DNA of 63,986 nt, the filler included, from Planctomycetota bacterium (GTDB lineage Bacteria; Planctomycetota; Planctomycetia; JALXBF01), in NCBI GenBank assembly GCA_026991575.1. It is 7 parts of 7 records of this genome, joined end to end, with 100 filler letters (N's around TTAATTAATTAA, not from the genome) between each part and the next. Parts side by side here need not be neighbours in the genome. Positions count along the whole stretch, not along the records: positions 35,683 to 50,748 come from JALXBF010000127.1; 6 more parts are not named here. One strand, written 5' to 3'. Each line of letters opens with the position of its first letter. The first letter of the stretch is position 1. The position numbers and the translations under genes are program-made. Shown here piece by piece: positions 15,520 to 60,161 of the stretch. The notes beneath the pieces are model-generated. The model worked only from the letters and a program-made list of their open reading frames with translations, had not been told where the DNA came from and did no database searches.

Positions 15520-15619
15520 NNNNNNNNNNNNNNNNNNNNNNNNNNNNNNNNNNNNNNNNNNNNTTAATTAATTAANNNNNNNNNNNNNNNNNNNNNNNNN
15601 NNNNNNNNNNNNNNNNNNN
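15520..15619. other. Artificial contig linker
   Basis: N run with central TTAATTAATTAA (stops in six frames). Confidence 0.98.
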
Positions 15620-20368: not shown

Positions 20369-20468
20369 NNNNNNNNNNNNNNNNNNNNNNNNNNNNNNNN
20401 NNNNNNNNNNNNTTAATTAATTAANNNNNNNNNNNNNNNNNNNNNNNNNNNNNNNNNNNNNNNNNNNN
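20369..20468. other. Artificial contig linker
   Basis: N run with TTAATTAATTAA. Confidence 0.98.
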
Positions 20469-35582: not shown

Positions 35583-35682
35583 NNNNNNNNNNNNNNNNNN
35601 NNNNNNNNNNNNNNNNNNNNNNNNNNTTAATTAATTAANNNNNNNNNNNNNNNNNNNNNNNNNNNNNNNNNNNNNNNNNNNN
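35583..35682. other. Artificial contig linker
   Basis: N run with TTAATTAATTAA. Confidence 0.98.
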
Positions 35683-36819
35683 GGTCGCTACGTGTGCCCG
35701 TGGGCTCGGAGCAATCAGCCCGGCTATTACGATGGCGGCAACAAGTTCGACCTCACTCGTTGGGATCCTGCCTACTTCCGGCGGCTTCGCGACTTTATGA
35801 CCGCTGCCCAACGATATGGCATCGTCGTGGAGTTCAACCTGTTCTGTCCGTTCTACGACGAGGAGCTGTGGCGGGCCTCACCGCTGAACGCGCGCAACAA
35901 CGTCAACGCGATCGGTCGCTGCCCACGTCAAGAGGTCTACACGCTTCAGCACGAGGATCTGACGGAAGTCCAGAAGGAGGTAACCCGCAAGCTGGTGCGT
36001 GCGCTGAATGAGTTCGACAATCTCTATTTTGAGGTCTGCAACGAGCCGTACGCCGGCACGGTCACCGACGAGTGGCAGGCCGAGATCGTGCGGACGATCG
36101 TAGGCGAGGAGGAAAAGCTACCGAACCGACATCTGATCTCATTGAACGTCGCCAACGGTAGAAAACGCGTGCTGCTGCCTCCAAGAGACGTTTCCATCTT
36201 CAACTTCCACTACTGCGTGCCGCCGGACACCGTGGGCATGAACTACCAGCTCGATCGGGCCATCGGCGAGAACGAAACCGGATTCCGAGGCAAGCACGAC
36301 CTGCTCTACCGGACCGAAGGCTGGGCCTTCATCCTCTCGGGTGGAGCTCTCTACAACAACCTCGACTACTCGTTTGTCGCAGGCCATGAGGACGGTAGCT
36401 TCCAGGAATACGCTTCACCAGGAGGTGGCAGCGTTGAGCTGCGTCGCCAGCTCGGCATTCTGAAACGTTTCATCGAGTCGTTCGATTTTGTCCGGATGCG
36501 ACCGCTGCCGGAGGCGATTGTGTCCGTGCGTCCGAGGCTGGTGAGCTATCTGCTGGCCGAACCGCCGCACCATTACGCGGGTTATCTTCACGTGCCCTTG
36601 CCATTTCGCCCAAAAAGGATCGAACACCATCAGCGGCACAATATCCGGGCGCGCCTCAGCGTCGCGTTGCCTCCAGGTCGGTACCGGGTGCGTTGGCTTG
36701 ATGTACTGACGGGTCGCTTCTCGGCCGACGCGGTCGTGACCGCTCAGCCGGCCGGCACGCCTTTGACCAGCCCGCACTTCGACAACGATATCGCGTTCCG
36801 GATTGATCGGCTGAGTTGA
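35683..36819 (+). CDS. Clan GH-A (GH5-like) glycoside hydrolase, 5' truncated
   Basis: FDLTRWDPAYFRRL, EVCNEP acid/base motif, NFHY, ENETG. Confidence 0.7.
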   Translation, partial: GRYVCPWARSNQPGYYDGGNKFDLTRWDPAYFRRLRDFMTAAQRYGIVVEFNLFCPFYDEELWRASPLNARNNVNAIGRCPRQEVYTLQHEDLTEVQKEVTRKLVRALNEFDNLYFEVCNEPYAGTVTDEWQAEIVRTIVGEEEKLPNRHLISLNVANGRKRVLLPPRDVSIFNFHYCVPPDTVGMNYQLDRAIGENETGFRGKHDLLYRTEGWAFILSGGALYNNLDYSFVAGHEDGSFQEYASPGGGSVELRRQLGILKRFIESFDFVRMRPLPEAIVSVRPRLVSYLLAEPPHHYAGYLHVPLPFRPKRIEHHQRHNIRARLSVALPPGRYRVRWLDVLTGRFSADAVVTAQPAGTPLTSPHFDNDIAFRIDRLS

Positions 36820-36948
36820 ACTTGGTCTTGAGCTGTCCGTCTGCCAGCCGCCGGAAGCACCCGAGCAGGGAGTCACCTGGCCACGGCCGATCCCCGCTGC
36901 ATCGGCAGCGGTGCCCTTAGTTAGCCCGTCATGGCAGACCGGAACCAT

Positions 36949-36976
36949 GAAAAGCCCGGCCGATTCCGGCCGGGCT
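36949..36976 (-). terminator. Intrinsic terminator after tRNA-Ser
   Basis: Minus strand GCCCGGCCG-GAAT-CGGCCGGGC followed by TTTT. Confidence 0.75.
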
Positions 36977-36990
36977 GTCCACGGGGTCAA

Positions 36991-37081
<91 letters not shown>

Positions 37082-37343
37082 GCTCGTGCCGGCCTGCCCC
37101 TCCGGGGGCAGGACCTGACCGTGCATGGAATTCTTGCTTTCAGCAGTGACATCGGCAAGCGGGCTGCTGCGGTTGCAGTTGGGGAGCAATGCGCACGTTG
37201 CTCCGTCTGTTAGAACCCGTAGAGCCTTGAGGGGTTCGCTGTGCAATCGCAGCTGAGGCGCAACCTACCGTATCGCAGAACATTGCGCAGCACTGCCACT
37301 GCCAGGACCAACGGCTCGCCGGGCAGTGGCAAGCGTCGTGGTG

Positions 37344-39107
37344 CTACTCCTTGATGATGTCACGCACGGTAGCCCCGGATGGAATCATTGGCAGGACGTG
37401 CTCCTGGTAAGGGATCAGCACGTCCAGCAGGTACGGCCCCGGATAGGCAAGCATCTCTTCCAGGGCCGGCCTCAGCTCGCTGCGGGCCGAGATCTGCCGG
37501 CCTTTGATGCCAAAGCCGGCGGCGATCTCGACAAAGTTCGGGTAGGGCTCCGTCTCAGATCCCCCTTTGCCGATTGCCTCAGGCCGGTCAATCGGCCCCA
37601 GGTACGTGTGCGCTCGACGGCCCTCGAAAAACCGGTCCTCCCATTGCACGACCATCCCCAGGTGCTGGTTGTTCAGGATCATCATCTTGACCGGCAGCTT
37701 CTCGCAGTAAACTGTGGCCAGCTCCTGGATGTTCATCAAAAACGAGCCGTCACCGTCGATGTCGATGACCGTACAGTCAGGATGGGCGACCTGCGCCCCA
37801 ATGGCCGCCGGCAAACCAAACCCCATGGCACCCAGCCCGGAGGAACTGAGCCACGTTCGCGGCTTCATGAAGCGGTAGTGCTGTGCGACCCACATCTGGT
37901 GCTGACCGACCCCGACGGAGACGATCGTCTTCTCGCCACGGGTGAGTTCCCACAGCTCGCGGACCGCCACCTGAGGCATGATGCAATCCTGGCGGTCGGG
38001 GACCTTCAGCGGCTCGGTTTCGCGCCAGCGGTCGATCTGCCGGAGCCAGTCGCGGTAGTCGCCCGGCTGTACGATCTTGTTCAGCTCCTGAAGTACGTAC
38101 TTGATGTCGCTGACCACGCCGATGTGAGCTGGCTTGTTCTTGTGGATCTCGCTGGGATCGATGTCCACGTGAACGATAACAGCGTTCTTGGCAAACTCGC
38201 TCAGCTTCCCGGTGACTCGATCGTCGAAGCGAACCCCGAACGCCAGAATCAGGTCCGCTTCGTTGATGGCATAATTCGCATACACGGAACCGTGCATCCC
38301 GAGCATCCCCAGGCAGAGGTAGTGGTCCCCGGGCACCGCGCCAAGACCCGTTAGCGTCAAGGCCACGGGGATGCCGGTCTTCTCCATGAACTCGGTCAGA
38401 TCAGGCGAGGCGCCCGATGCGATGATGCCGCCGCCGGCGTAAACGATCGGCCGACGCGCTCGCCGGATCGCCTCGGCGATACGGCGGATGTCTCGCGAAG
38501 ATGCTTCCCGGTACGGGTTGTAGCCCGGAAGGTTCATGGGTGGATCCCAATCGGGTACCACCGCGCTGAGCTGCACGTCCTTGGGCACGTCGATGAGCAC
38601 CGGACCGGGCCGCCCGGTGGTTGCGACGTAGAACGCTTCTTTTAGCACCCGCGTCAAATCCTGGACGCGCGTCACCAGGTAGTGGTGCTTCGTAATGGCC
38701 CGGCACACCTCGACTGTCGGGGTTTCCTGAAAGGCGTCTGTGCCGATCACGCTGGTGGGCACCTGCCCTGTGATCGCGATCAACGGCACCGAGTCCATCT
38801 TCGCGTCAGCCAGGCCGGTGACCAGATTTGTCGCGCCGGGGCCGCTCGTTGAGATGACCACGCCCGGTTTGCCCGTGCTGCGAGCGTAGCCCTCGGCCGC
38901 AAAGGCACCCCCCTGCTCGTGCCGGGGTAATACCGTGCGGATCCGGTCGGCGTGCCGTACCAGCGCCTGATGGATCGGCATGCTGGCCCCACCCGGGTAG
39001 GCAAACACCGTGTCCACGCCGTGACGGATCAGACACCGCACCAGTATTTCGGCACCCTGCAGGGGCGTTTCCTGCGAGGTGCGACTCTCCGTGGTAACCT
39101 CACTCAT
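37344..39107 (-). CDS. ilvB: Acetolactate synthase large subunit
   Basis: [42 protein letters not shown]. Confidence 0.95.
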
Positions 39108-39468
39108 CGTCGCACGTCCACCTCAAGTAGCCGGCCAGGCTGTCAGCGGGGTGGCCCCAGTTAGATTATTGCTGATTGCCAGACTTGGGCAATTCGAACG
39201 GCGATCTGGCAGGCTCTCGGCCCTCACCGAGCCCGCCGCCTGGCGCGGGCCGAGCCGGCAACCGCAATCACGGCCCGGCCGCCGCTACAACGCCTCTGCG
39301 GCTCTCAGCCCGAGCCAGCTCCCCTGCCGGCGGGCTGGCCCGATACGAGGCACCCCGCGTCGCTCAGGTACCGCTACAATTCGGGGTACGATTCCAGCGT
39401 CCGGTGCACTGCGGCTCGTATCAACGGTGTGACGCGCAGGGAAGCCAGCAGCGAACCAAGTGACTGCG

Positions 39469-41982
39469 ATGTACCGCAAGAGCCTCCCACGAACGATCCT
39501 CACCATACTGCTATTGATCGGTTTGCCGGCAGCGGCCGCGGCTCAGATTCCAGGCCTGGACTTTGGCAGCGGCGATGGCAAGCCGATCGAGTTTTCGGTC
39601 ACCGGTCCGGATAGCCCGGTTGGGCCCGGGGACACGATCGAGGTGAAGATAAGGGCTCGTCTTCAGCCTGAATGGCATGTCTACGCCACAAGCATGCCTG
39701 ATGTGGCCACCGGCCCGCGGCCCACACGGATCCGTGTCACAGCTCCGAAAGGCGCAGAACTCCTCGAGGTTCGCCCGGACCGCGACCCCGTAGTCAAGTT
39801 CGAGGAGGTGTTCCAGCTTCAGACGGAGTACTTCGAGGAGGAAGTTACGTGGACACTGGTGATCCGGATGCCGGAGGAACTACCGTCAGGGTCGGAGCTT
39901 GCAGGCGAGATCCGCTACCAGCTCTGCACGCAAACCCAGTGCTTACCTCCCTCGACCTTCCGCTTCGCCGTGCCGCTCACCGTCACCGGCGGGTCAGCCC
40001 CCGGTGCCGCAGGCGCCCCGGCCACGACCGCAGAACCGCCAGCAGGAGACGCTGGCGGAGAAGAGCAGCGTGATTCTCAGGAGCAGCAGCGCGACAGTAG
40101 CGCTGTCTCCGGCGAGATTCGGTCGTTATCGTCTGCTTTGCTGTTCGGCTTCATCGCGGGCCTGATCCTCAACGTCATGCCCTGCGTGCTGCCGGTGCTG
40201 AGTCTGAAGATCTACGGCTTCGTCCAGCAAAGCGGTCAGGATCCCTGGCGTACCCGCTGGCTCGGTCTGACGTTCGCCGCCGGCGTCATCTTCGTCTTTC
40301 TGATCCTGGCCGGTCTTGCGTGGGCCTTGTCGCTGGGCTGGGGCCAGCAGTTCCAGTCGCGGGCATTTGTCGTGGCGATGGTAGGGCTGCTGGTAGCGTT
40401 CGCGATGGGTCTGTTCGACGTGTACACCATCCGGCTGCCGGGATTCGTGGCACGGGCTGAGGGCGAGCTAGCTCACGAGGAAACGTATCTTGCCAGCTTC
40501 ATGAAAGGGATGCTCGCCACTGTGCTGGCCACCCCATGCAGTGGACCGTTTCTGGGCGGAGTCCTGACGTTTGCCGTCGCTCAACCACCGCCTGTTATCT
40601 TCGCCGTGTTCGCAGCCATCGGCATCGGCATGGCTTCCCCTTATGTCCTGCTGGCTTGGTTCCCCGGATGGGCCAGGTTCTTGCCCAAGCCCGGGGAGTG
40701 GATGAACGTGCTCAAGGAGGCCATGGGCTTTCTGCTGCTCGGTGCCGCGCTGTGGCTGCTATGGACCCGCCGCCACGATGGTGAGTTCGTGTTGTGGACC
40801 ACTGCTTTCGGACTCTGGGTTGGCTTTGCCTGCTGGCTGTACGGCCGGCTGGCCAGCCCGCTGGCAGGTGTGCTGCGCCGCCGTCTGGCACCGGCCTTCG
40901 CCCTGGGCACGCTCGCGTTGGGTTGGTGGGTCTGCGTCTCACTGACCGGCGTTCTCAATCCTCGCCACACGGCACAGGCTTCCGAACACACGGGTGCGGC
41001 TCAGCAATCCGGTGGGATTGCCGGCGTTCCGCTAGAACAGATCAAAGACGCGATCAACAAAGGTCAGTGGCTCGAGTACCGTCGCGAGCTCCTGGACGGA
41101 CTGCTGCGCCAGGGCTACAGCGTCATTGTGGACTGGACTGCCGACTGGTGACTGACCTGCAAGACGCTGGAACGGTCTGTTCTGGCTCACCCGTCGGTCG
41201 ATCAGGCGTTGCGCGACAAGAGGATGGTCCGCCTCCGAGCGGACATGACCGAGACCAATCCCGATGCCGAAGACCTGTTACAGGAACTGGGCAACACGGC
41301 CAAGTCCATCCCCTTCGTCGCATTATTCTCGCACAAAGCACCGGATTCGCCGATCACGCTGCGCGACTTCTTCACCGTCAAGACGCTGCTTATGCAGCTG
41401 GACCAGATAGCCCCCTCCCAGCCGCCCGATCACCTGGACCAACAGGGCAGCCGAAAGGGTTTCGTGGAGACCTCGGTTCAGCCAACAGACTCGGCAGCCA
41501 CCGCCGCCGACGGCTCCGAGCAGCCGGCCGCTTCGAAGCAGGCTCGCCCCGAGAAGGTCGCAGCGGCCAAGCGATCGTCTGCGTCCGGAGAGGATTTGGA
41601 GTGGAGACCGTTTGACTTGGCGGAGATCCGAAAGCTTCGACAGCAGGGAATGAACCTGATTGTGGACTGGACGGCGGACTGGTGAACGGAGTGCAAGGAG
41701 CTGGAACGGTCCGTTCTGGCGCAGAAAGAGGTGATCGCAAAGCTGAAGGAAGGTGGTTTCGTCGCATTCCGTGCGGACGTGACCAACGTCTCCGACACGA
41801 ATCATCCCACGTACCGCTTCATGCGTGAGTTGGGCAACACGACGATGTCGCTGCCCTTTGTGGCCATCATCCCGGGCAACGCACCGAATCGTCCCGTGCT
41901 CATCACACGTGTGGTCGAGAAGGACCGGTTCTTGGCGCTCCTGGACGAGCTCATCAGCTCCGCCGACAGCACCGAGCATTAG
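39469..41982 (+). CDS. dsbD: DsbD/ScsB-family disulfide reductase with two thioredoxin domains, predicted selenoprotein (UGA at 41149 and 41683), 837 aa
   Basis: Alpha domain YQLCTQTQCLPP; TM domain NVMPCVLP and ATPCSGP; DWTADW*LTCK and DWTADW*TECK; ORFs 39460, 41209 and 41731 share one frame; final stop TAG. Confidence 0.87.
41166..41186 (+). promoter_or_regulatory. Putative bacterial SECIS element 1
   Basis: GCTGGAAC-GGTCT-GTTCTGGC hairpin beginning 14 nt after TGA; loop starts GG. Confidence 0.72.
41700..41720 (+). promoter_or_regulatory. Putative bacterial SECIS element 2
   Basis: GCTGGAAC-GGTCC-GTTCTGGC hairpin beginning 14 nt after the second TGA. Confidence 0.72.
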
Positions 41983-42406
41983 CGCCCGCCACTTGCCCGG
42001 ATTCCCGCTCTGCGGCGACAGCTTCTCGGGCAGAGGACTCCCCCCCTTCGCTCACCGCGGTACCGGGCCCGAATCCGCCGCCAGAAACACTGAAGACATC
42101 GGACCTGTCGGGCGTGCCCCGCCCAACGCACGCGTGACGAATGGTCAGTGTGGTGACGGAACCATGGCCGGGCGTTGGTTCGGGGTCGGCATTTGGGAAG
42201 TCCAGGCGTCCACGGGCGTGGCGGGCAGTAGCGAGCGTTCGGGTTGGTGGGATTGTGCAGCGAGCTGGCCGGCAGCTCGTTCCGCGTTGCCAGGGGCTAC
42301 GGTTGAGTAGCCCGAACGCCTCGCTGGACAACAGGCGGTTGTGGGCCCGCAACTTGATGATCTCTGCGGGCACACACACCGAGCCACCCACCAAAGAGAC
42401 TCCGTG

Positions 42407-44395
42407 ATGAGTAGTCTCCGGTCTTCGCGCGACTCCAGTTGGTTGCCTTCTGCCATCCTCATTGTCGTAGGCGTGGCGGCTGTCACCTGCTTGGCGTTCG
42501 CCCTGGCCGCGTGGGCGATCGGTCGGGCTCAGACGCGTGAGTTTCAGCGCCAGGGACAGGCACGGTTGGAGCTTGTTAGCGCCTTTGCACGGGCCTGCCG
42601 TCAATACTGCGCCGACTACCTGCGGCCGGCTCTGGAGCAAGAGCAGACGAACTTCATCATCGAGGGCATGTCATCAACCTACATGACCGAACGGATCCTT
42701 CGTTACCTGTCGCGTGACTTCCCGGGACTGATCTACCGCCAAGCCTCCCCCAATCCGTTGAACCCGGACCATCGCCCGACCGCGTTCGAGCAGCGGTTAC
42801 TGGACCGGTTCCGCGACAATCGCAAACTCGACAAGTTAGAGGGCATTGTCAGGACGGCGCGCGGAGAGGTTTACTATGTCGCTCGCCCGATCGTCGCCGA
42901 GAAGCGCTGTCTGAAGTGCCACGGCGACCCACAGAACGCCCCGTACGCGATCCGGGAGCGATACGGAACCGAGAGCGGCTTCGGCTGGAAGCCAGGCGAA
43001 GTCGTGGGCTTGCTGATGGTGTCCGTTCCCGTAGCGGATATTCTTGCCAGTCAGGCAAGGGTGCGCAGCGTCCTCCACACGACCGCTATCGGCATCAGCC
43101 TGCTCTTGAGCGTAGCGCTGGGGCTTATGCTGCTGCTCTTGATGCGCTGGAACTGGAAGTTGCGGCACGCTACACAGCGGGCTGAGGCGGCCAGTGCTGC
43201 GAAGTCGGCGTTCCTGGCCACCATGAGCCATGAGATCCGCACGCCGCTGACCGCGATCCTGGGGTACGCCGATGAGCTGGCCTTGCTTGAGCGAGACGGC
43301 CTGCTGCCGTCCCAAGCCAGGGAACCGCTCGATGCCATCCGGACCAGCGGTCGCCATCTGCTGAGTCTCATCAACGACATTCTGGACCTTGCGCGAGTGG
43401 AAGCAGGCCGACTCATGCGGCACATCACGGACGTCCGCCTGCCAGAACTGCTGCACGACGTCTGCTCGATCATGCGGGTGCGGGCCGCCGAAAAAGGGCT
43501 CAAGCTGTCGGTGCGCACCCGCGGCAAGGTCCCGGCGGTCGTGCGTGCTGACCCGGCCCAGCTACGCCAGATTCTCGTCAACTTGGTGGGCAATGCGGTG
43601 AAGTTCACGGAGGAGGGCGAAGTATCGATCGAGCTTGCCGCTGAGCCAAAGAGCCCGTCCCGCACGGTGTTGAAGATCGCCGTGCGCGACACGGGCATTG
43701 GGATCGCGCCCGACAAACTGGACCAGCTCTTCGAGCCGTTCGTTCAGGTAGCCGACAGCGCGGTGACCCGGGCGCAAGGCACGGGCCTAGGGCTGGCGGT
43801 GACGAAGCGCCTGGTTGAGTTGGCAGGCGGGTGGATCGCCGTCGAGAGCGAGCTGGGTGTGGGCACGACGTTCCACGTCACTCTACCGGTGCACCACAGC
43901 ACTGACGTGGAGTGGCTCGACGAGGCAGCGTTTGCGCGGGCATCGTCGGTCTCCGACCAGCCCGCCAATACCGACGTCCGCCTGGACGGTTGCCACGTGC
44001 TGCTGTGCGAGGACAACCCGATGAACGCCCGACTGGTGCGGCGAATTCTGGAACGCGTCGGCGTGCGCTGCGAGCATGTGACCAACGGTCAGGAGGCGGT
44101 GGAGTATTTCCGGACACGGCCCAAGCACGAATGGCCTGATGTGGTCCTGATGGATCTGCAAATGCCGGTCATGGACGGCATGACCGCCGTCAAGCACTTG
44201 CGGGCGATGGGCGTTTCGGTGCCGATCCTGGCGCTCAGCGCCAACGTCATGAAGGACGATCGCGATCGTTGTCTGAAGATCGGGTTCAACGACTACCTCT
44301 GTAAGCCGATTAATCGGGCGCGGCTGTTGGAAAGGATTCGGAACTTTGCGCGCCGAAGCTGCCGGGACGGGGCAGTGAGCGGCTCGGTCCGTTGA
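42407..44395 (+). CDS. Hybrid sensor kinase with periplasmic heme-c (DUF3365/Tll0287-like) domain
   Basis: Two TMs, PLNP, CLKCHG, FGWKPG, MSHEIRTPL, NAVKFT, receiver DVVLMDLQMPVMDG. Confidence 0.92.
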   Translation: MSSLRSSRDSSWLPSAILIVVGVAAVTCLAFALAAWAIGRAQTREFQRQGQARLELVSAFARACRQYCADYLRPALEQEQTNFIIEGMSSTYMTERILRYLSRDFPGLIYRQASPNPLNPDHRPTAFEQRLLDRFRDNRKLDKLEGIVRTARGEVYYVARPIVAEKRCLKCHGDPQNAPYAIRERYGTESGFGWKPGEVVGLLMVSVPVADILASQARVRSVLHTTAIGISLLLSVALGLMLLLLMRWNWKLRHATQRAEAASAAKSAFLATMSHEIRTPLTAILGYADELALLERDGLLPSQAREPLDAIRTSGRHLLSLINDILDLARVEAGRLMRHITDVRLPELLHDVCSIMRVRAAEKGLKLSVRTRGKVPAVVRADPAQLRQILVNLVGNAVKFTEEGEVSIELAAEPKSPSRTVLKIAVRDTGIGIAPDKLDQLFEPFVQVADSAVTRAQGTGLGLAVTKRLVELAGGWIAVESELGVGTTFHVTLPVHHSTDVEWLDEAAFARASSVSDQPANTDVRLDGCHVLLCEDNPMNARLVRRILERVGVRCEHVTNGQEAVEYFRTRPKHEWPDVVLMDLQMPVMDGMTAVKHLRAMGVSVPILALSANVMKDDRDRCLKIGFNDYLCKPINRARLLERIRNFARRSCRDGAVSGSVR

Positions 44396-44425
44396 GGCTG
44401 CTGTGGCGCGCGTCTCGGCACCGGG

Positions 44426-44851
44426 TTAGGGCAGGAACCGTGCAGCTCCTTCGCCCGCTGATCGCAAGCACCGCTCGCTGGTGCCGAACCACCGGTACCG
44501 GCGTTGGGCAATCCAGCGGTACAGCAGGTCACGCAGCTCGGATGGGAGCGCTTGCAGCACGGCGGCCGCGCGCCACGGCCACGGCAGGTAACGGCAGACT
44601 CGCAGGACGGCATCGGAAGCGGTGTACAGCTTCCCGCCGGGATCCAGCAGCACGACCGTGTGCGGATCGCCCGGTAGCGGCAGCCCGCGGGTTCGTAGTG
44701 AGCGGGCGGTCGGGCCCGCCAATGGCGCAAAGCGAAGAACACCGCGACGATCGAGCCTGAGCAGGAGCTGAACCGAGCGGCTGCACAGCAGGCACTCGGC
44801 GTCAAAGAACAGGATCGGGTGACCCATCCCAGAGTGCCCGGCACCACTCAT
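44426..44851 (-). CDS. DCC1-like (DUF393) thiol-disulfide oxidoreductase
   Basis: FDAECLLC, RFAPL, SDAV, YRWIAQRRYRWFG. Confidence 0.9.
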   Translation of the reverse strand: MSGAGHSGMGHPILFFDAECLLCSRSVQLLLRLDRRGVLRFAPLAGPTARSLRTRGLPLPGDPHTVVLLDPGGKLYTASDAVLRVCRYLPWPWRAAAVLQALPSELRDLLYRWIAQRRYRWFGTSERCLRSAGEGAARFLP

Positions 44852-44927
44852 GGCTCTGCCTCTGCTCTGCCCACCGACAATCCCGTTCAACCGCAGCCCG
44901 TTGCTAAGGCACGCCAGGGCAAACAGC

Positions 44928-44957
44928 TTGACATCCCCCTGCTGCCCCTCCTAGAAT
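44928..44957 (+). promoter_or_regulatory. sigma70 promoter of the riboswitch leader
   Basis: TTGACA-18 nt-TAGAAT just upstream of the aptamer. Confidence 0.7.
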
Positions 44958-44980
44958 CGGCCGTACGTTGCACTGACGGC

Positions 44981-45094
44981 CATCTTATCCAGAGTGGCTG
45001 AGGGACGGGCCCTGTGAAGCCACAGCAACCGGTCCGGTGCCCCACCGGACACGGTGCTAATTCCCGGCCCGATGCGTTCGGGCAAGATAAGATG
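44981..45094 (+). ncRNA. SAM-I riboswitch (S-box)
   Basis: P1 CATCTTATC/GATAAGATG; ATCCAGAG..GAGGGA..GGCCC..TGAAGCC..GCAACC..GGTGCTAATTCC..AAGATAAG consensus. Confidence 0.95.
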
Positions 45095-45315
45095 GGCGTG
45101 ATCGCCTTCTCTTATCTTCGCCAGCCGGGGCCCGCCGAGAGTGTGGGTTTCGGTGGCACGCCAGCCAGTGCACCTCTGGATCCACGGCTCGTCACACCGG
45201 CCTGAGCGGATTGCTCAGCCACCCGGTGCCGGTATGGCTGTGTCGCCGACTGCGGAACGGTCACGGTTTGAGCCCGCCCGCGGGTTCAACAAAAGCATGC
45301 GATGGGGGTAGCTCG

Positions 45316-46596
45316 ATGGCAGAAAGCTTTGTCCGTGGGCTGAAGTGCCGGCTGTGCGGAACAAAGTACCCCAAGGAACCCAACAACTTCTGCCCTGAAG
45401 ACTTCGGACCGCTAGAGGTCGACTACGATTACGACGCGATCGCGGCAGCAATCAGCAAAGAGGTACTTGCCCGGCGGCCCGCCACCATGTGGCGGTACCG
45501 CGAGCTGCTCCCTATCGACGGAGACCCGACGGTAGGCGTTCAGGTCGGCGGCACCCCGCTGGTCGCCGCTCCGCGGCTCGCCCGCGCCCTCGGGCTGGAG
45601 CGGGTCTACATCAAGAACGACGCGGTCAACTTCCCGACGCTGTCGTTCAAAGACCGGGTCGTCTCAGTGGCACTGTCGAAAGCAAAGGAGTTTGGCTTCG
45701 ATGTTGTTGGCTGTGCATCGACCGGGAACCTGGCCAACAGCGTGGCAGCCAATGCGGCGTCTGCAGGTCTGACCGCCTACATCTTCATCCCAGCCAACCT
45801 GGAGCTAGCCAAGATTGTCGGCACCCAGGTCTACGGTGCCCACGTCGTCGCCATCGATGGCACTTACGATCAAGTAAATCGCCTCTGCACGCAGGTGGCG
45901 TTCCACTACGGTTGGGGCTTTGTCAACATCAACTTGCGGGCCTACTACGCGGAAGGCTCCAAGAGCTTGGCCTACGAAGTTGCCGAAGCGTTGGGTTGGC
46001 AACTGCCCGACCATGTGGTCGTACCGATGGCGGGCGGCAGCCTGATCTGCAAGGTGGCGAAAGCGTTCCGGGAACTGCAGCAACTGGGGTTTGTGCCGGC
46101 CAAGTCCGTGAAGATCCACGGCGCGCAGCCGGCCGGCTGCTGCCCGATTGTCCGTGCCGTGAAAGAGGGCACCGACGAGATCCGCCCGGTGCGCAAGCCG
46201 AACACGATAGCCAAGAGCCTGGCGATTGGTGACCCGGCCGACGGCTACTTCGCACAGGGTGTGATCCGTGAAAGCGGTGGCTGGGCCGAAGATCCCACGG
46301 ATGCCGAAATCGTAGCGGCGATGAAATTGCTGGCCGAAACCGAGGGGATCTTCACGGAGACCGCCGGCGGCGTCACGCTGGCCGCAACCCAGCGGCTAGT
46401 CGCCTCCGGCCGGATCCGGCCCGACGAAACAGTTGTGGTCTGCATCACGGGCAACGGCCTAAAGACTCAGGACGCTCTGATGGGAGTGCTCGAGGCGCCT
46501 CAGGTTATCCGGCCGTCGCTGGATGAGTTCAAGAAACTGATCGCCAGCGAAGGTCATGCCAGCCCACAGGCGGCTGAGGCAGTCGGTAGCCGCTAG
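45316..46596 (+). CDS. Threonine synthase-like PLP enzyme (possible sulfhydrylase)
   Basis: N-terminal CxxC/CPEDF, PTLSFKDR, ASTGNLA, EGSKS, ETAGG, TGNGLK. Confidence 0.88.
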   Translation: MAESFVRGLKCRLCGTKYPKEPNNFCPEDFGPLEVDYDYDAIAAAISKEVLARRPATMWRYRELLPIDGDPTVGVQVGGTPLVAAPRLARALGLERVYIKNDAVNFPTLSFKDRVVSVALSKAKEFGFDVVGCASTGNLANSVAANAASAGLTAYIFIPANLELAKIVGTQVYGAHVVAIDGTYDQVNRLCTQVAFHYGWGFVNINLRAYYAEGSKSLAYEVAEALGWQLPDHVVVPMAGGSLICKVAKAFRELQQLGFVPAKSVKIHGAQPAGCCPIVRAVKEGTDEIRPVRKPNTIAKSLAIGDPADGYFAQGVIRESGGWAEDPTDAEIVAAMKLLAETEGIFTETAGGVTLAATQRLVASGRIRPDETVVVCITGNGLKTQDALMGVLEAPQVIRPSLDEFKKLIASEGHASPQAAEAVGSR

Positions 46597-46649
46597 CAAG
46601 CATGCGACGGGCTCGCGGGTAAGGCACAGACGACCAGGCGGAGGACGCG

Positions 46650-46928
46650 ATGGCCATCCGGGTGCATATTCCAACCCCCCTGCGGCAGTATACCGAGGGC
46701 CAGGAAACCGTCGAGGTCCAGGGAACGACCGTGGCCGAGGTGCTCCGGGCTCTAGGAGAACAATACCCAGGGATCACCGAGCGGCTGTTCGACGGTGAGA
46801 AGATCCGCCGCTTTGTGAACGTGTACGTCAACGACGAGGACATCCGCTACTTGCAGAACCTGGACACGCCGGTCAAGGACGGAGACGAGGTGAGCATCAT
46901 TCCGGCCGTGGCTGGCGGCAGTCGGTAG
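46650..46928 (+). CDS. MoaD/ThiS/CysO-like ubiquitin-fold sulfur carrier
   Basis: IPTPLR, FVNVYVNDEDIR, IIPAVAGG followed by SR. Confidence 0.93.
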   Translation: MAIRVHIPTPLRQYTEGQETVEVQGTTVAEVLRALGEQYPGITERLFDGEKIRRFVNVYVNDEDIRYLQNLDTPVKDGDEVSIIPAVAGGSR

Positions 46929-46939
46929 TGAGAACGGCC

Positions 46940-47995
46940 ATGACAGAACAGGTGGCTGGGGCACAGAACGAACTGGAGCGCTATAGCCGGCAGATGATGT
47001 TCCCCGGCATCGGGGAGGAGGGGCAGCGACGCATCCGACAAGGTCGCGTCACCCTCTGCGGCTGTGGCGCGCTCGGTACTGTCATCGCCAATGTGCTCGT
47101 CCGCGCCGGTGTCGGTTTCTTGCGCATCATCGACCGGGACTTCATCGAATGGAACAACCTGCAACGTCAGGTGCTGTTCGATGAGGACGACGTGCGTGAG
47201 TCGCTGCCGAAGGCAGAAGCGGCTGCGCGGAAACTGCGCCGCATCAACTCAGAAGTGGACATCGAGCCGATCGTTGCCGACGTGGACCACACGAACATCG
47301 TGCAGTTCGTTCAGGATGCGGACGTCATCCTGGACGGCACCGACAACTTCGAGACCCGTTACCTGATCAACGACGCTGCCGTCAAACTGGGTAAGCCCTG
47401 GATCTACGGCGGTTGCATCGGCAGTCACGGCCAGACGATGACGATCGTCCCTGGCGAGACCCCATGTCTGCGCTGCGTCATCGAGTCCGCCCCCCCGCCC
47501 GGCATGGCCCCCACCTGCGAAACGGCGGGCATCCTTGGCTCAACCGTCAACATCATCGCCTCGCTCCAAGCAGTCGAAGCGCTGAAGCTGCTCGCCGGCC
47601 GCAAGGACGCGATCAACCGCAGTCTGATCTACATCGACGTGTGGGACAATGTGTACCGCACGTTCAAGATCGCTTCGCTTCGCGACAAGGTGGACTGTCC
47701 AACGTGCAAACGCGGTGAGTTTCCCTGGCTGGAGGGCAAACTCGGCTCGCACACCACCACCCTCTGCGGCCGGAACGCCGTCCAGGTGGTACACCGGCGG
47801 GCTGAACGTCTGTCGTTTGAGGAGCTGGCCGCGAAACTGACCGGGGTCAGTAACGTGCGGTACAACCGTTTCATGCTGCGCTTCGAAGTAGATGGCTACG
47901 AGTTCACCGTCTTCCCCGACGGGCGGGCCATCATTAAGGGCACGAACGACATCGCCAAGGCACGCACGCTCTACGCGCAGTACATCGGGACCTGA
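46940..47995 (+). CDS. ThiF/MoeB family adenylyltransferase
   Basis: RYSRQ, GCGALG, NLQRQ, DGTDNF, CLRC, CPTC, FPDGR tail. Confidence 0.93.
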   Translation: MTEQVAGAQNELERYSRQMMFPGIGEEGQRRIRQGRVTLCGCGALGTVIANVLVRAGVGFLRIIDRDFIEWNNLQRQVLFDEDDVRESLPKAEAAARKLRRINSEVDIEPIVADVDHTNIVQFVQDADVILDGTDNFETRYLINDAAVKLGKPWIYGGCIGSHGQTMTIVPGETPCLRCVIESAPPPGMAPTCETAGILGSTVNIIASLQAVEALKLLAGRKDAINRSLIYIDVWDNVYRTFKIASLRDKVDCPTCKRGEFPWLEGKLGSHTTTLCGRNAVQVVHRRAERLSFEELAAKLTGVSNVRYNRFMLRFEVDGYEFTVFPDGRAIIKGTNDIAKARTLYAQYIGT

Positions 47996-47999
47996 ACCG

Positions 48000-49154
48000 A
48001 TGATCTACCTGGACAACGCGGCCACCAGCTTCCCTAAGCCCGAGTCCGTCTATCGGGCAATGGACGAGTACGCCCGCACCAGTCTGGGCAACCCGGGCCG
48101 CTCCGGACACAAACTTGCCGTCGGCTCGGAACGCGTGCTCGATGAAGTCCGTCACCTGCTGAACCAGCTCTTCCACGGCGAGGCACCGGAACGGTTCATC
48201 CTGACATTCAACTGCACCGACAGCCTCAACATGGCGATCAAAGGGACCGTCTCCGAAGGGGACCACGTCATCACGACGGTCCTGGAACACAACAGCGTTT
48301 CGCGCCCGCTCGTTGCGCTGCAGCGTGCTGGCCGCATTGAACTGACTCAGGTCCCCTGCACCGCCGAGGGTGTGATCGACCCGGACGCAATCCGCCAGGC
48401 AATCCGGCCCAACACCAAACTGATCGCCCTCACCCATGCTTCCAACGTACTCGGAACCGTGCAGCCCATCGCCGAAGTCGGCCGCATCGCACGTGAGCAC
48501 GATCTGCTGTTTCTGGTCGACGCAGCCCAAACAGCCGGCGTCGTACCCATCGATGTGCAGGCCATGTGCATCGACCTGTTGGCCTTTCCGGGCCACAAGA
48601 GCTTGCTGGGGCCAACCGGCACCGGTGGGCTCTACGTCGGTCCCCGTGCCCGGTTGCGGCCGTGGCGTGAGGGGGGCACGGGTGGCGACAGCTCCAGCCC
48701 GACGCAGCCTACTGAATTGCCCTACTACCTCGAAGGCGGCACCCCTAACGTGCTCGGAGCCGTTGGCCTCCGTGAGGGCATTCGCTTCGTGCTCGAACGC
48801 GGCCCAGATACTATCCGGAACCACGAGTTGGATCTGATCCAGCAGGTCGTGGCCTGGGCAGAACAGGACGCAAACTTCCGCATCGTCGGCTCGTTCGACC
48901 GCACGCGACACGTCGGAACGATCAGCCTGGCATGCGACGTGCTTCCGGCCGCCGAGATCGGCCAAATCCTGGACGAAGCATTCGATATCTGCATCCGCCC
49001 CGGCCTGCACTGCGCCCCCTACGCCCACCGCGCCTTCGACACGTTTCCGGACGGTACGGTACGGATCAGCCCAGGACCGTTCAACACAGCCGAGGACATC
49101 GAACAGCTCTGCCAGGCGTTGAGTCAAATCGCCCGCGAGGCCGTGCAACTGTGA
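48000..49154 (+). CDS. Cysteine desulfurase family protein (class V PLP)
   Basis: YLDNAATS, EHNS, DAAQ, GHKSL, RPGLHCAP. Confidence 0.92.
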   Translation: MIYLDNAATSFPKPESVYRAMDEYARTSLGNPGRSGHKLAVGSERVLDEVRHLLNQLFHGEAPERFILTFNCTDSLNMAIKGTVSEGDHVITTVLEHNSVSRPLVALQRAGRIELTQVPCTAEGVIDPDAIRQAIRPNTKLIALTHASNVLGTVQPIAEVGRIAREHDLLFLVDAAQTAGVVPIDVQAMCIDLLAFPGHKSLLGPTGTGGLYVGPRARLRPWREGGTGGDSSSPTQPTELPYYLEGGTPNVLGAVGLREGIRFVLERGPDTIRNHELDLIQQVVAWAEQDANFRIVGSFDRTRHVGTISLACDVLPAAEIGQILDEAFDICIRPGLHCAPYAHRAFDTFPDGTVRISPGPFNTAEDIEQLCQALSQIAREAVQL

Positions 49155-50499
49155 ACAGACAGGGCAGCTTTCCCGATCGTCTCGACCGGCCAATTCCCCG
49201 TGACCGAGACGGTGCACGGGGGCGCATTGGTGCGTCGCGAGGGAAGGCCGTTCGCGGTCTGCTGCGGGAGAAGCATCCAGGAATACTCGCGGCCATGCTT
49301 CAGATACACCAGCGGGCCTAAGGTTCGTTGCAGCTCTTTCACGCGGTCGGCCGACGCTTGGCTTGCCGTGTGTGCCGCTGGGCCGGGGCGAGCCGCGCAT
49401 CACGTCAGCAAACATCCTCGCGAATCCTGAGGTCCACGCACCCGGCAGGGCGCTAGAGCCCGCGGGCGGCGACTTTTCGGTACGCCGCCCGTATCGTCAC
49501 GTAAACGAGGCAGCGGCCGAGAAAACCTCCCTTCTTGGCGCTGCCGCGGAGCGCGCCGCCCGCTCCCCTCCAGCGAAGCCCATTTGCAACGGGCGGCGCA
49601 GCCGGCCCAGACTGCCGGGCAGACGGAAGTCGGTCCAATCGAGGCGGTCGCACATACCGCACCCGCGAAAAAGCCCTGACACAGCCCGCGCGACTGGGGC
49701 TGGCGTTGTTCAACCGCTACTCTGACGCGAACGCCTCGGCGCGGGTCTGGCTCGCCTACGTTTGGGCGACAGTCTGGCGCGCGTTGGCGGGTTGGTTTCG
49801 GGTACGTTCGGAGGCGGTTTCGCCAGGGTCGGAGGACCGTTCACCTCGCCAGCCACCGTGCAGTCGCAGGAGGAGGGCTCTACGCCCCCCTCCTGCGAGT
49901 TCGCCGTGGCTGGCGGGTTGGACAGTTCTCGGACGCATGCGGACCAAACCCGCGCCCGGGCGGCTTGGCGGGCACCGCGAGCCGTGAGGCGAGATCGGTA
50001 TCGCAGCGACAGCTGCGGAGAGGGTCGCGGGCGGTGTGGTTTCGGCCAGGGGCAAGACCTGCGCGTGTGGCGGCCGGCGGATGGTTCGGCCCTGCACACC
50101 ACGGCGCTCGACGACGAGTGGCCCGGATGCTGCGTCCGGAATTGCCGAATCAACCCGGCAGCCTGCTTCAACCGGCTGGTGGGGGGGCTTTATGCTCCCC
50201 CGCCCGCAACGTTGATCGATAGCGCGGGCAGATCTCCAAGAGGTCCTTTCCCTTTCGGGCCGCGGGCGGGTCGATCCCGCCCGCGGCCCGGCTGGCGGAA
50301 TTTCCCGAGGCCGGCGGCGCGGGCGAACGCAATTCGCTGCGGTCCCAGCAAAAACGCGATCCCGCTGTGCGGCGGGTCTTGGGAATGGGAGGGAAAGGAA
50401 ACAAAACGGCGCACCGGGCGCTATCCACCAACCAACAGAGATAAGGCTAGCAAGCCCCGGCCGAAGAGCAGAGACGCACCGCGCGCCAGAAAAAAGTGC

Positions 50500-50567
50500 T
50501 TGACACGGCGGTCCGGGGTGGTTATGATCGCAGCGGATTTGACAACTGTCCCGATTATGAGGATTCT
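50500..50567 (+). promoter_or_regulatory. Tandem sigma70-like promoters
   Basis: TTGACA(50500)-17-TATGAT with upstream A-tract; TTGACA(50539)-17-GATTCT. Confidence 0.6.
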
Positions 50568-50662
50568 CCCACATCGAGCAGGTTTGCAGGAGGATCCCCA
50601 TGGGGCGGCGGGCAAATCCAGCAAACGAGGCGCGACTACAACACGAGGGCCATAGGCCAGAC

Positions 50663-50680
50663 GAGAGAGAGAGAGAGAGA
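50663..50680 (+). repeat. (GA)9 dinucleotide repeat
   Basis: Direct reading. Confidence 0.9.
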
Positions 50681-50748
50681 ACTGGCCCCGTGAGCACGTC
50701 CGGCTGTGCTGGTGGCGTCTAACCACGCCGGGCAGCGCAGACGGGAAA

Positions 50749-50848
50749 NNNNNNNNNNNNNNNNNNNNNNNNNNNNNNNNNNNNNNNNNNNNTTAATTAA
50801 TTAANNNNNNNNNNNNNNNNNNNNNNNNNNNNNNNNNNNNNNNNNNNN
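50749..50848. other. Artificial contig linker
   Basis: N run with TTAATTAATTAA. Confidence 0.98.
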
Positions 50849-55432: not shown

Positions 55433-55532
55433 NNNNNNNNNNNNNNNNNNNNNNNNNNNNNNNNNNNNNNNNNNNNTTAATTAATTAANNNNNNNNNNNN
55501 NNNNNNNNNNNNNNNNNNNNNNNNNNNNNNNN
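55433..55532. other. Artificial contig linker
   Basis: N run with TTAATTAATTAA. Confidence 0.98.
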
Positions 55533-60061: not shown

Positions 60062-60161
60062 NNNNNNNNNNNNNNNNNNNNNNNNNNNNNNNNNNNNNNN
60101 NNNNNTTAATTAATTAANNNNNNNNNNNNNNNNNNNNNNNNNNNNNNNNNNNNNNNNNNNN
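60062..60161. other. Artificial contig linker
   Basis: N run with TTAATTAATTAA. Confidence 0.98.

Follow-up and report, generated by a model that had tools for sequence, protein, structure and literature searches.

The question raised by this locus is whether a single gene for a DsbD-family membrane protein runs through two in-frame UGA codons and reads both as selenocysteine (Sec), or whether these codons are stops that divide it into pieces. The locus was singled out in a first-pass annotation of a 63,986-nucleotide stretch (the window) from assembly GCA_026991575.1 of an uncultured Planctomycetota bacterium, which had described an 837-residue frame with TGA at 41149 and 41683 as its only interruptions. 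Translation of the plus strand from 39469 to 41982 gave the same picture, with in-frame stops at U561 and U739 only before the terminal TAG. Under translation table 11 the frame falls into three open reading frames (ORFs) in the same frame, at 39460-41151, 41209-41685 and 41731-41982. The gene and its two UGA codons are as follows.

39469..41982, plus strand: whole gene, DsbD-family predicted selenoprotein, 837 codons, ATG start and TAG stop, translated with TGA as U
41149..41151, plus strand: UGA codon 1 (Sec561), the first of the two in-frame TGAs, aligned with the first CxxC Cys of homologues
41683..41685, plus strand: UGA codon 2 (Sec739), the second in-frame TGA, aligned with the same Cys

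The two codons stand in the contexts DWTADW-U-LTCK (U561) and DWTADW-U-TECK (U739). We put at about 0.88 the probability that both UGAs are decoded as Sec, which would give one DsbD two tandem UxxC domains.

The sequence itself was examined at both codons. The gene is carried by contig C127 of its genome (G000; 15,066 bases, window 35683-50748), and the window is made of contigs joined through runs of N at 15520-15619, 20369-20468, 35583-35682, 50749-50848, 55433-55532 and 60062-60161, so that no gene neighbourhood can be read across these runs. A Logan contig, assembled independently from a public sequencing run that is labelled as a hydrothermal vent metagenome, matched window 40800-41982 (1183 bases, including both TGAs) with 0 differences and a word depth of about 40. 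As the run is possibly the genome's own source sample, the match excludes an assembler artefact, yet it adds no independent biology. The prediction that gene callers would split the gene also held: in a public protein collection it is present as fragments of 560 residues, ending before U561, and 146 residues, ending in DWTADW.

The predicted protein is a DsbD-type transmembrane disulfide reductase, in which a signal peptide is followed by an alpha domain, an eight-helix beta domain, a first gamma domain (gamma-1), a linker that is flexible and about 50 residues long, and a second gamma domain (gamma-2). Its parts lie at the following positions.

39469..39546, plus strand: signal peptide, residue 1 to about residue 26, with a hydrophobic stretch over 5-32, from sequence and hydropathy, with the cleavage site inferred
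39625..39963, plus strand: alpha domain (DsbD_N) spanning residues 53-165 and holding the Cys pair C153/C158; PF11412 at 41.1 bits (cut-off 25)
40138..40959, plus strand: membrane (beta) domain, residues 224-497, about eight hydrophobic helices, with C239 (MPCVLP) and C357 (TPCSGP); PF02683 and hydropathy
41065..41403, plus strand: thioredoxin-like gamma domain 1 over residues 533-645, with U561-L-T-C564 as active site and the cis-Pro within SIPF; Thioredoxin_7
41419..41568, plus strand: linker, low-complexity and rich in Pro, Ala, Ser and Gln, residues 651-700, with no hydrophobic segment; sequence and hydropathy
41599..41979, plus strand: thioredoxin-like gamma domain 2 over residues 711-837, with U739-T-E-C742 as active site and the cis-Pro within SLPF; Thioredoxin, Thioredoxin_2 and AlphaFold2

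The cysteine pairs of the alpha domain (C153/C158, within YQLCTQTQCLPP) and of the membrane domain (C239/C357) are both present, as had been reported from the sequence, and the resolving Cys is kept in both gamma domains (C564 and C742). The membrane domain matched PF02683 (DsbD_TM) over residues 224-431 with 81 bits against a cut-off of 27.1, and the CcdA structure 5vkv as well. The hydropathy profile showed a signal-like N-terminus and hydrophobic helices until residue 496, with none beyond; both thioredoxin-like domains would therefore lie on the same, periplasmic side of the membrane.

The claim that the thioredoxin fold continues after each TGA was borne out by different means for the two domains. 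Thioredoxin_7 matched two stretches of the protein, the better one at residues 542-620 (E 3.1e-27), and gamma-1 aligned to the E. coli DsbD gamma structures with E about 1e-6, U561 falling opposite the first Cys of CVAC. For gamma-2, Pfam Thioredoxin and Thioredoxin_2 matched residues 724-788 and the domain passed PF13098 on residues 725-788 (33.2 bits, cut-off 27). Its AlphaFold2 model, built on a 74-row alignment, reached a predicted local distance difference test score of 93.1 and a predicted template modelling score of 0.86, and it places U where the first long helix starts. When this model was searched against the PDB with Foldseek, the best eight ranks were E. coli DsbD gamma, and N. meningitidis DsbD gamma appeared at ranks 10 and 12. 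The columns invariant across 74 gamma domains of the family (A, W, U/C, C and cis-Pro) are present in both gamma-1 and gamma-2.

Decoding of UGA as Sec requires its own machinery, and the four components named in the first-pass annotation as a check, selA, selB, selD and tRNA-Sec, were all found in the genome. The tRNA-Sec scored 73.3 bits (gathering score 47) and was called by ARAGORN as tRNA-SeC with anticodon tca; selA scored 559 bits (cut-off 268), selB 383.5 bits (cut-off 242) and selD 358.5 bits (cut-off 125). They form one cluster in the order selD, selB, selA, tRNA-Sec at C184:25019-29790 (loci L001, L009, L010 and L012). The selD gene carries one in-frame TGA, through which SelD is probably also a selenoprotein.

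The position of the two codons was then compared among 20 loci from this genome and its relatives. In 16 class-level loci the UGA column is occupied by the first Cys of DFTADW-C-xx-CK, and the same column is TGA at six sites in four genomes: two sites in the present genome, two in G001 (same family) and one each in G002 and G003 (same order). Outside this count, a gamma piece of G025 with one TGA is a further candidate. The earlier proposal that Sec takes the place of the attacking first Cys thus agreed with the homologues, which have Cys or TGA in exactly that column.

A hairpin resembling the bacterial Sec insertion sequence (bSECIS) was found by local folding after each codon.

41166..41186, plus strand: bSECIS-like hairpin 1, 8-base-pair stem, 5-nucleotide loop GGUCU, 22 nucleotides from UGA to loop
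41700..41720, plus strand: bSECIS-like hairpin 2, same stem, 5-nucleotide loop GGUCC, 22 nucleotides from UGA to loop

Each hairpin begins 17 nucleotides after its UGA, and the energies at the two sites ranged from -8.6 to -11.3 kcal/mol. The bSECIS model given in PMC13188914 specifies a loop of 3-9 nucleotides, a stem of 4-16 base pairs, a G in the first two loop positions, a spacing of 16-37 nucleotides and an energy of -7.5 kcal/mol or lower; both hairpins lie within all four published constraints. Among nine sequences of the protein's own subfamily, 91.7% of the cells were paired, compared with 29-49% when the partner was slid, and one pair changed from C-G to U-A. The hairpin of a sister subfamily (31 sequences) lies two nucleotides further downstream and had 95.9% of its cells paired, with a two-sided change in four of seven pairs and a score reached by none of 500 shuffles.

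Folding of the 31 nucleotides after the codon also separated Sec from Cys sites. The mean energy was -7.96 kcal/mol at 92 distinct Sec sites, 88 of which were at or below -5 kcal/mol, and -3.96 kcal/mol at 15 Cys sites, where 5 of 15 reached that value and shuffles averaged -4.11 kcal/mol; the Mann-Whitney p of 5e-8 is overstated because the sequences are related. The 67-nucleotide folds after each UGA did not exceed shuffles in stability (z -0.09 and +0.98), and an Rfam E-value scan of window 39000-42500 returned no family at the hairpins, its sole match being a chance snoRNA (E 8.3). The informative fold signal is the local hairpin only, and not the 67-nucleotide segment.

These data also bear on whether the UGAs might be read as a residue other than Sec, be it Cys carried on tRNA-Sec, Trp through near-cognate decoding, or another residue through a lineage-wide reassignment of TGA. 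The Cys homologues indicate that Cys would be workable at this position, a point that holds nothing specific to this gene. Reassignment is opposed by the use of TGA as an ordinary stop in this genome, where it ends 851 of 1837 frames of at least 400 codons, is the commonest stop of long frames and also terminates the genes adjoining the DsbD gene. Readthrough without selenium is further opposed by the complete Sec machinery and by a SECIS-type hairpin that was found only beside the TGA forms, and we consider such a reading very improbable.

The same gene with two TGAs occurs in G001, with 59% identity over residues 38-828, and the sharing of the TGA pair at this distance is therefore more than chance. 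Synonymous differences per site (pS) against this orthologue were saturated, at 0.62-0.85. Downstream of U561 the non-synonymous value (pN) was 0.218 with a pS of 0.62, and downstream of U739 the two values were 0.394 and 0.652, indicating purifying selection in both segments. Identity to G001 was 69% for gamma-1, 46% for gamma-2 and 26% for the linker.

It could be argued that the locus is a pseudogene or three separate genes, with the TGAs acting as true stops and the downstream pieces being relics or small ORFs, and gene callers do annotate it in this way. A pseudogene would hardly have kept its TGA pair while synonymous sites saturated, nor shown purifying selection downstream and a SECIS hairpin after each TGA. 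The pieces after each TGA have neither a signal peptide nor a hydrophobic segment, which speaks against independent genes. Furthermore, a shortened product would be without the gamma active site, yet the genome, at 97.8% completeness, has no other full-length DsbD; its single further DsbD_TM match is a 257-residue CcdA-like frame. This explanation is thus barely credible.

A subtler alternative accepts that both UGAs encode Sec but holds that the second is also a frequent stop, so that the main product would be an alpha-beta-gamma-1 protein ending at residue 738 and the two-Sec form would be minor and possibly selenium-dependent. Release factor 2 is a competitor of Sec decoding in bacteria; gamma-2 is the faster-evolving domain (46% identity to the orthologue, compared with 69% for gamma-1), and a protein terminated at U739 would still be a whole DsbD with one gamma domain, as found in the relatives G002 and G003. 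Set against these points, gamma-2 retains every family-invariant residue and a confidently predicted DsbD gamma fold, the sequence past U739 is under purifying selection, and the second SECIS hairpin equals the first in quality and is kept in G001. We therefore regard predominant termination at U739 as unlikely, and favour Sec decoding at both codons within one polypeptide.

As gamma-1 and gamma-2 share 40% identity and are paralogues, their relationship was analysed in a tree of 25 gamma domains. The gamma-1 of the present protein paired with gamma-1 of G001 (support 99/97) and its gamma-2 with gamma-2 of G001 (99/98), and both pairs fell within an eight-row clade made up entirely of Sec forms (89/88), inside which the branching order is not settled. 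A quick 107-row tree agreed on the pairing of the gamma domains. The paralogy of the domains and the pairing of like copies within an all-Sec clade indicate that one Sec codon and its hairpin were duplicated together with the domain. On the simplest reading, the two-Sec state would have arisen through a tandem duplication, older than the split of G000 and G001, of a gamma module that by then possessed its Sec codon and SECIS. The first-pass annotation had reasoned that two independent nonsense mutations at the same catalytic codon were very unlikely. Its conclusion stands, while the argument was the wrong one, since the paralogous gamma domains and the all-Sec clade point to duplication of a single Sec module.

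In E. coli DsbD, electrons pass from thioredoxin to the Cys pair of the beta domain, then to gamma, to alpha and finally to periplasmic partners. The present protein resembles it in the type and order of its domains, in the alpha and beta Cys pairs and in the thioredoxin fold of gamma, whose active site ends in xxC (the E. coli protein, also called DipZ, is represented by PDB 2fwe-2fwh, 1uc7, 1vrs and 4ip1). In common are also an Asp six positions ahead of the active site, a Glu seven positions behind it, and the cis-Pro; the same disulfide cascade is presumably run. It differs in having Sec for the first active-site Cys and two gamma domains with a low-complexity linker, and the identity of gamma-2 to the E. 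coli domain is only about 21%. The alpha-gamma mixed-disulfide complex 1vrs was among the structure matches of both gamma-1 and gamma-2.

SelB and tRNA-Sec very probably decode each UGA, each steered by its own bSECIS hairpin, to yield two periplasmic UxxC domains of selenothioredoxin type with Sec at the exposed attacking position of the first Cys. By analogy with the E. coli system, a working model can be proposed for the rest. Electrons would travel from cytoplasmic thioredoxin to C239/C357 and on to a gamma UxxC, then from gamma to C153/C158 and to periplasmic clients, as in cytochrome c maturation or disulfide isomerisation and repair. Gamma-1 would be the canonical relay, because it is the better conserved of the two (69% compared with 46%) and adjoins the membrane domain, and gamma-2 an extra, faster-evolving tethered Sec domain that might act either as a second shuttle to alpha or as a built-in reductase for other targets. 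A more specific proposal, which we hold as tentative and rather doubtful, is that the doubled Sec-gamma, far from redundant, forms a branched periplasmic relay in which gamma-1 would serve its own alpha domain and the tethered gamma-2, as a selenothioredoxin, would pass electrons directly to other acceptors, a candidate being the lipoprotein of contig C126 described below. If so, one membrane protein would feed two reductive pathways, with rates enhanced by selenium, in a vent habitat.

Elsewhere in the window, on contig C126 (22695-25127, minus strand), we observed a gene for a predicted 810-residue lipoprotein in which a thioredoxin domain of DUF255/YyaL type (CHWC) is combined with a DsbD_N-like alpha domain at the C-terminus, the latter bearing a Cys pair of its own. 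This lipoprotein may be a candidate electron acceptor from a DsbD gamma domain.

Several points weigh against the interpretation of the locus as a two-Sec DsbD or against parts of it. Translation of the frame and incorporation of selenium are predicted from the genes. Two UGA-Sec events should lower the yield, and the full-length two-Sec product could therefore be minor. The run that matches both TGAs may not be independent, should it be the source of the genome, and covariation in the hairpin of the own subfamily is thin, with one two-sided pair change among nine related sequences. The NCBIfam DsbD model NF001419, of the subfamily kind, scored 210.7 bits, below its cut-off of 330, so that the protein stands outside that subfamily as a diverged relative. 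Which gamma copy is ancestral is not settled, as the 107-row tree groups G002 with gamma-2 (support 86) and the 25-row tree gives no resolution. The division of labour suggested for gamma-1 and gamma-2 is a weaker proposal, drawn from conservation and position only.

We then asked how widespread the arrangement is. When the middle fragment (residues 562-738) was compared with 5.8 billion proteins, three were recovered, namely its own, that of G001 and one from a third lineage (55% identity), and all three end in DWTADW. A scan of one genome per prokaryotic species for the motif T-A-D-W-TGA-x-x-C-K gave at least 119 loci. Among the 119 matches listed, a DsbD-type context was found in 90 and full flanks in 80; in 55 of these 80 one read-through frame held both the membrane domain of DsbD and a gamma domain, and the rest showed a gamma domain only (7), no domain match (17) or a spurious match (1). 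The matches listed came mostly from Planctomycetota (Pirellulaceae, Mariniblastus, Planctomycetaceae) and Verrucomicrobiota (Akkermansiaceae), with few other labels. None of the 119 matches listed had two motif matches in one locus, and a phylum sample of 400 other genomes held no match with two gamma domains and two TGAs. A Cys-type DsbD with two gamma domains was likewise not found in the protein collection with residues 525-837 as query (two matches, a single-gamma protein and the protein's own fragment), a search that was word-based and is therefore weak evidence of absence. The tandem Sec-gamma form would thus be a rare variant, seen in three lineages, in the third as a fragment.

Some candidates were rejected on inspection. 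G101 and G125, with one TGA each, are Cys-type DsbD genes in which the TGA is a true stop before trxA. L050 (Abditibacteriales) had appeared as a second double-Sec DsbD and proved to hold, after a TGA stop, a distinct gene for a Sec-thioredoxin that has a membrane anchor of its own. L096 and L106 had appeared to be multi-Sec and are single-Sec thioredoxin-tetratricopeptide repeat (TPR) genes, their extra TGAs lying in an arginine-rich, non-protein-like translation upstream of the start.

The frame of L050 deserves a separate mention. Over residues 1-838 it comprises a Sec-DsbD (U589), a TGA stop and then an in-frame gene for a membrane-anchored thioredoxin-like protein with Sec in SAPW-U-PAC, a pair that looks like the unfused counterpart of the gamma-gamma arrangement. 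The motif scan also brought up thioredoxin-fold genes with a TGA at the CxxC position and a local hairpin (L051, L103, L144, L063, L082, L084, L129, L151, L096 and L106); they include small FTADW-U-PGCK thioredoxins of Bacillales, proteins of the RTADW-U-xxCK..QLVEL type and a Planctomycetota Sec thioredoxin-TPR protein, and L051, L103 and L144 bear Fictibacillus/Alteribacillus labels. Many single-Sec DsbD genes of Planctomycetota have two tandem alpha (DsbD_N) domains (L034, L037, L046, L052, L054, L060, L062 and others), so that domains at one end of DsbD or the other seem to have been duplicated often in the phylum. On contigs of metagenome-assembled genomes labelled Bacteroidota or Acidobacteriota, Sec-DsbD genes were nested among planctomycete or verrucomicrobial ones. 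The cases are L035 (labelled Chitinophaga), compared with L104 (Planctomycetaceae); L111 (Crocinitomicaceae); and L040 (Vicinamibacteria). Their placement could reflect binning error or horizontal transfer.

The first-pass annotation knew of no characterised two-Sec DsbD, a statement that needs qualification: the tandem two-Sec form does appear unlisted, while Sec in a DsbD-gamma-like domain has long been catalogued and single-Sec DsbD genes are common. Table 1 of a 2026 review (PMC13188914) contains a 'thiol:disulfide interchange protein' selenoprotein family (PF13098, UxxC, one Sec, WP_011366075.1) credited to Kryukov and Gladyshev 2004. The family is also catalogued in Table 2 of PMC2398784, and its listing goes back to 2004-2008; it is placed in Geobacter and Syntrophus in PMC1794560, and the table entry is repeated in PMC9312934. 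The catalogued family and the present protein have in common a UxxC in a DsbD-gamma-type domain, likened here by the catalogue description, and differ in that the former has one Sec and the latter has the UxxC twice, with two Sec. Besides PF13098 the family is tied to the model cd02953, which is that of DsbD-gamma. The single-Sec DsbD proteins of Planctomycetota and Verrucomicrobiota are alike in the TADW-U-xx-CK motif, the SECIS position and the alpha/beta/gamma layout; they have one gamma domain, one Sec and often two alpha domains, whereas the present gene has one alpha domain and two Sec-gammas.

A known two-Sec family with a DsbD-type region is TsoB (NF045694), described in Table 1 of PMC13188914 as like a rhodanese/DsbD fusion with two Sec. 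The DsbD-type membrane domain and the number of Sec residues are shared; the TsoB model scored 176.6 bits, over the membrane domain only, against a cut-off of 805, and neither its rhodanese domain nor its UxxxxU motif was found in the present protein. None of the 119 prokaryotic selenoprotein families and subfamilies in Table 1 of the 2026 review (PMC13188914) is a two-Sec DsbD. No DsbD occurred among the matching rows in 12 of the 14 supplementary files of a study of Planctomycetes selenoproteins (PMC4807772), and PMC1088965 contained nothing relevant. A search of the selenoprotein literature on DsbD, disulfide interchange, the prokaryotic selenoproteome and planctomycete thioredoxin found no description of a two-Sec DsbD, and a search of the NCBIfam models found no dedicated model for a Sec-DsbD protein. 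Sec in a DsbD-gamma-like domain is thus already known, and the tandem gamma-gamma form with two predicted Sec residues appears to be unlisted.

On its contig the DsbD gene is accompanied by the following genes.

37344-39107, minus strand: thiamine pyrophosphate enzyme of acetolactate-synthase type, divergent from the DsbD gene
42341-44395: hybrid histidine kinase
45211-49154, plus strand: pyridoxal phosphate-dependent enzyme, ThiF/MoeB-like protein and NifS-like cysteine desulfurase, downstream of the kinase

These neighbours on the contig have no evident functional link with the DsbD gene. The cluster at 45211-49154 among them resembles a sulfur or selenium transfer set.

The practical consequence of the finding is modest. 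The locus provides a well-supported case of a bacterial membrane protein that would need two UGA-Sec decodings per polypeptide, and it points to a route by which such proteins may arise, namely the joint duplication, as a single module, of a Sec codon with the SECIS hairpin that follows it in frame. An annotation gap is exposed as well: full-length DsbD genes with a Sec-gamma are common in Planctomycetota and Verrucomicrobiota genomes and are recorded as truncated fragments. Annotation pipelines should join the three ORFs of the present gene, and selenoproteome counts in the Planctomycetes-Verrucomicrobia-Chlamydiae (PVC) group are too low. Finally, a natural alpha-beta-gamma-gamma protein offers a handle on how gamma shuttles between the membrane domain and periplasmic partners, and could reveal what Sec adds at the attacking position of a DsbD gamma domain.

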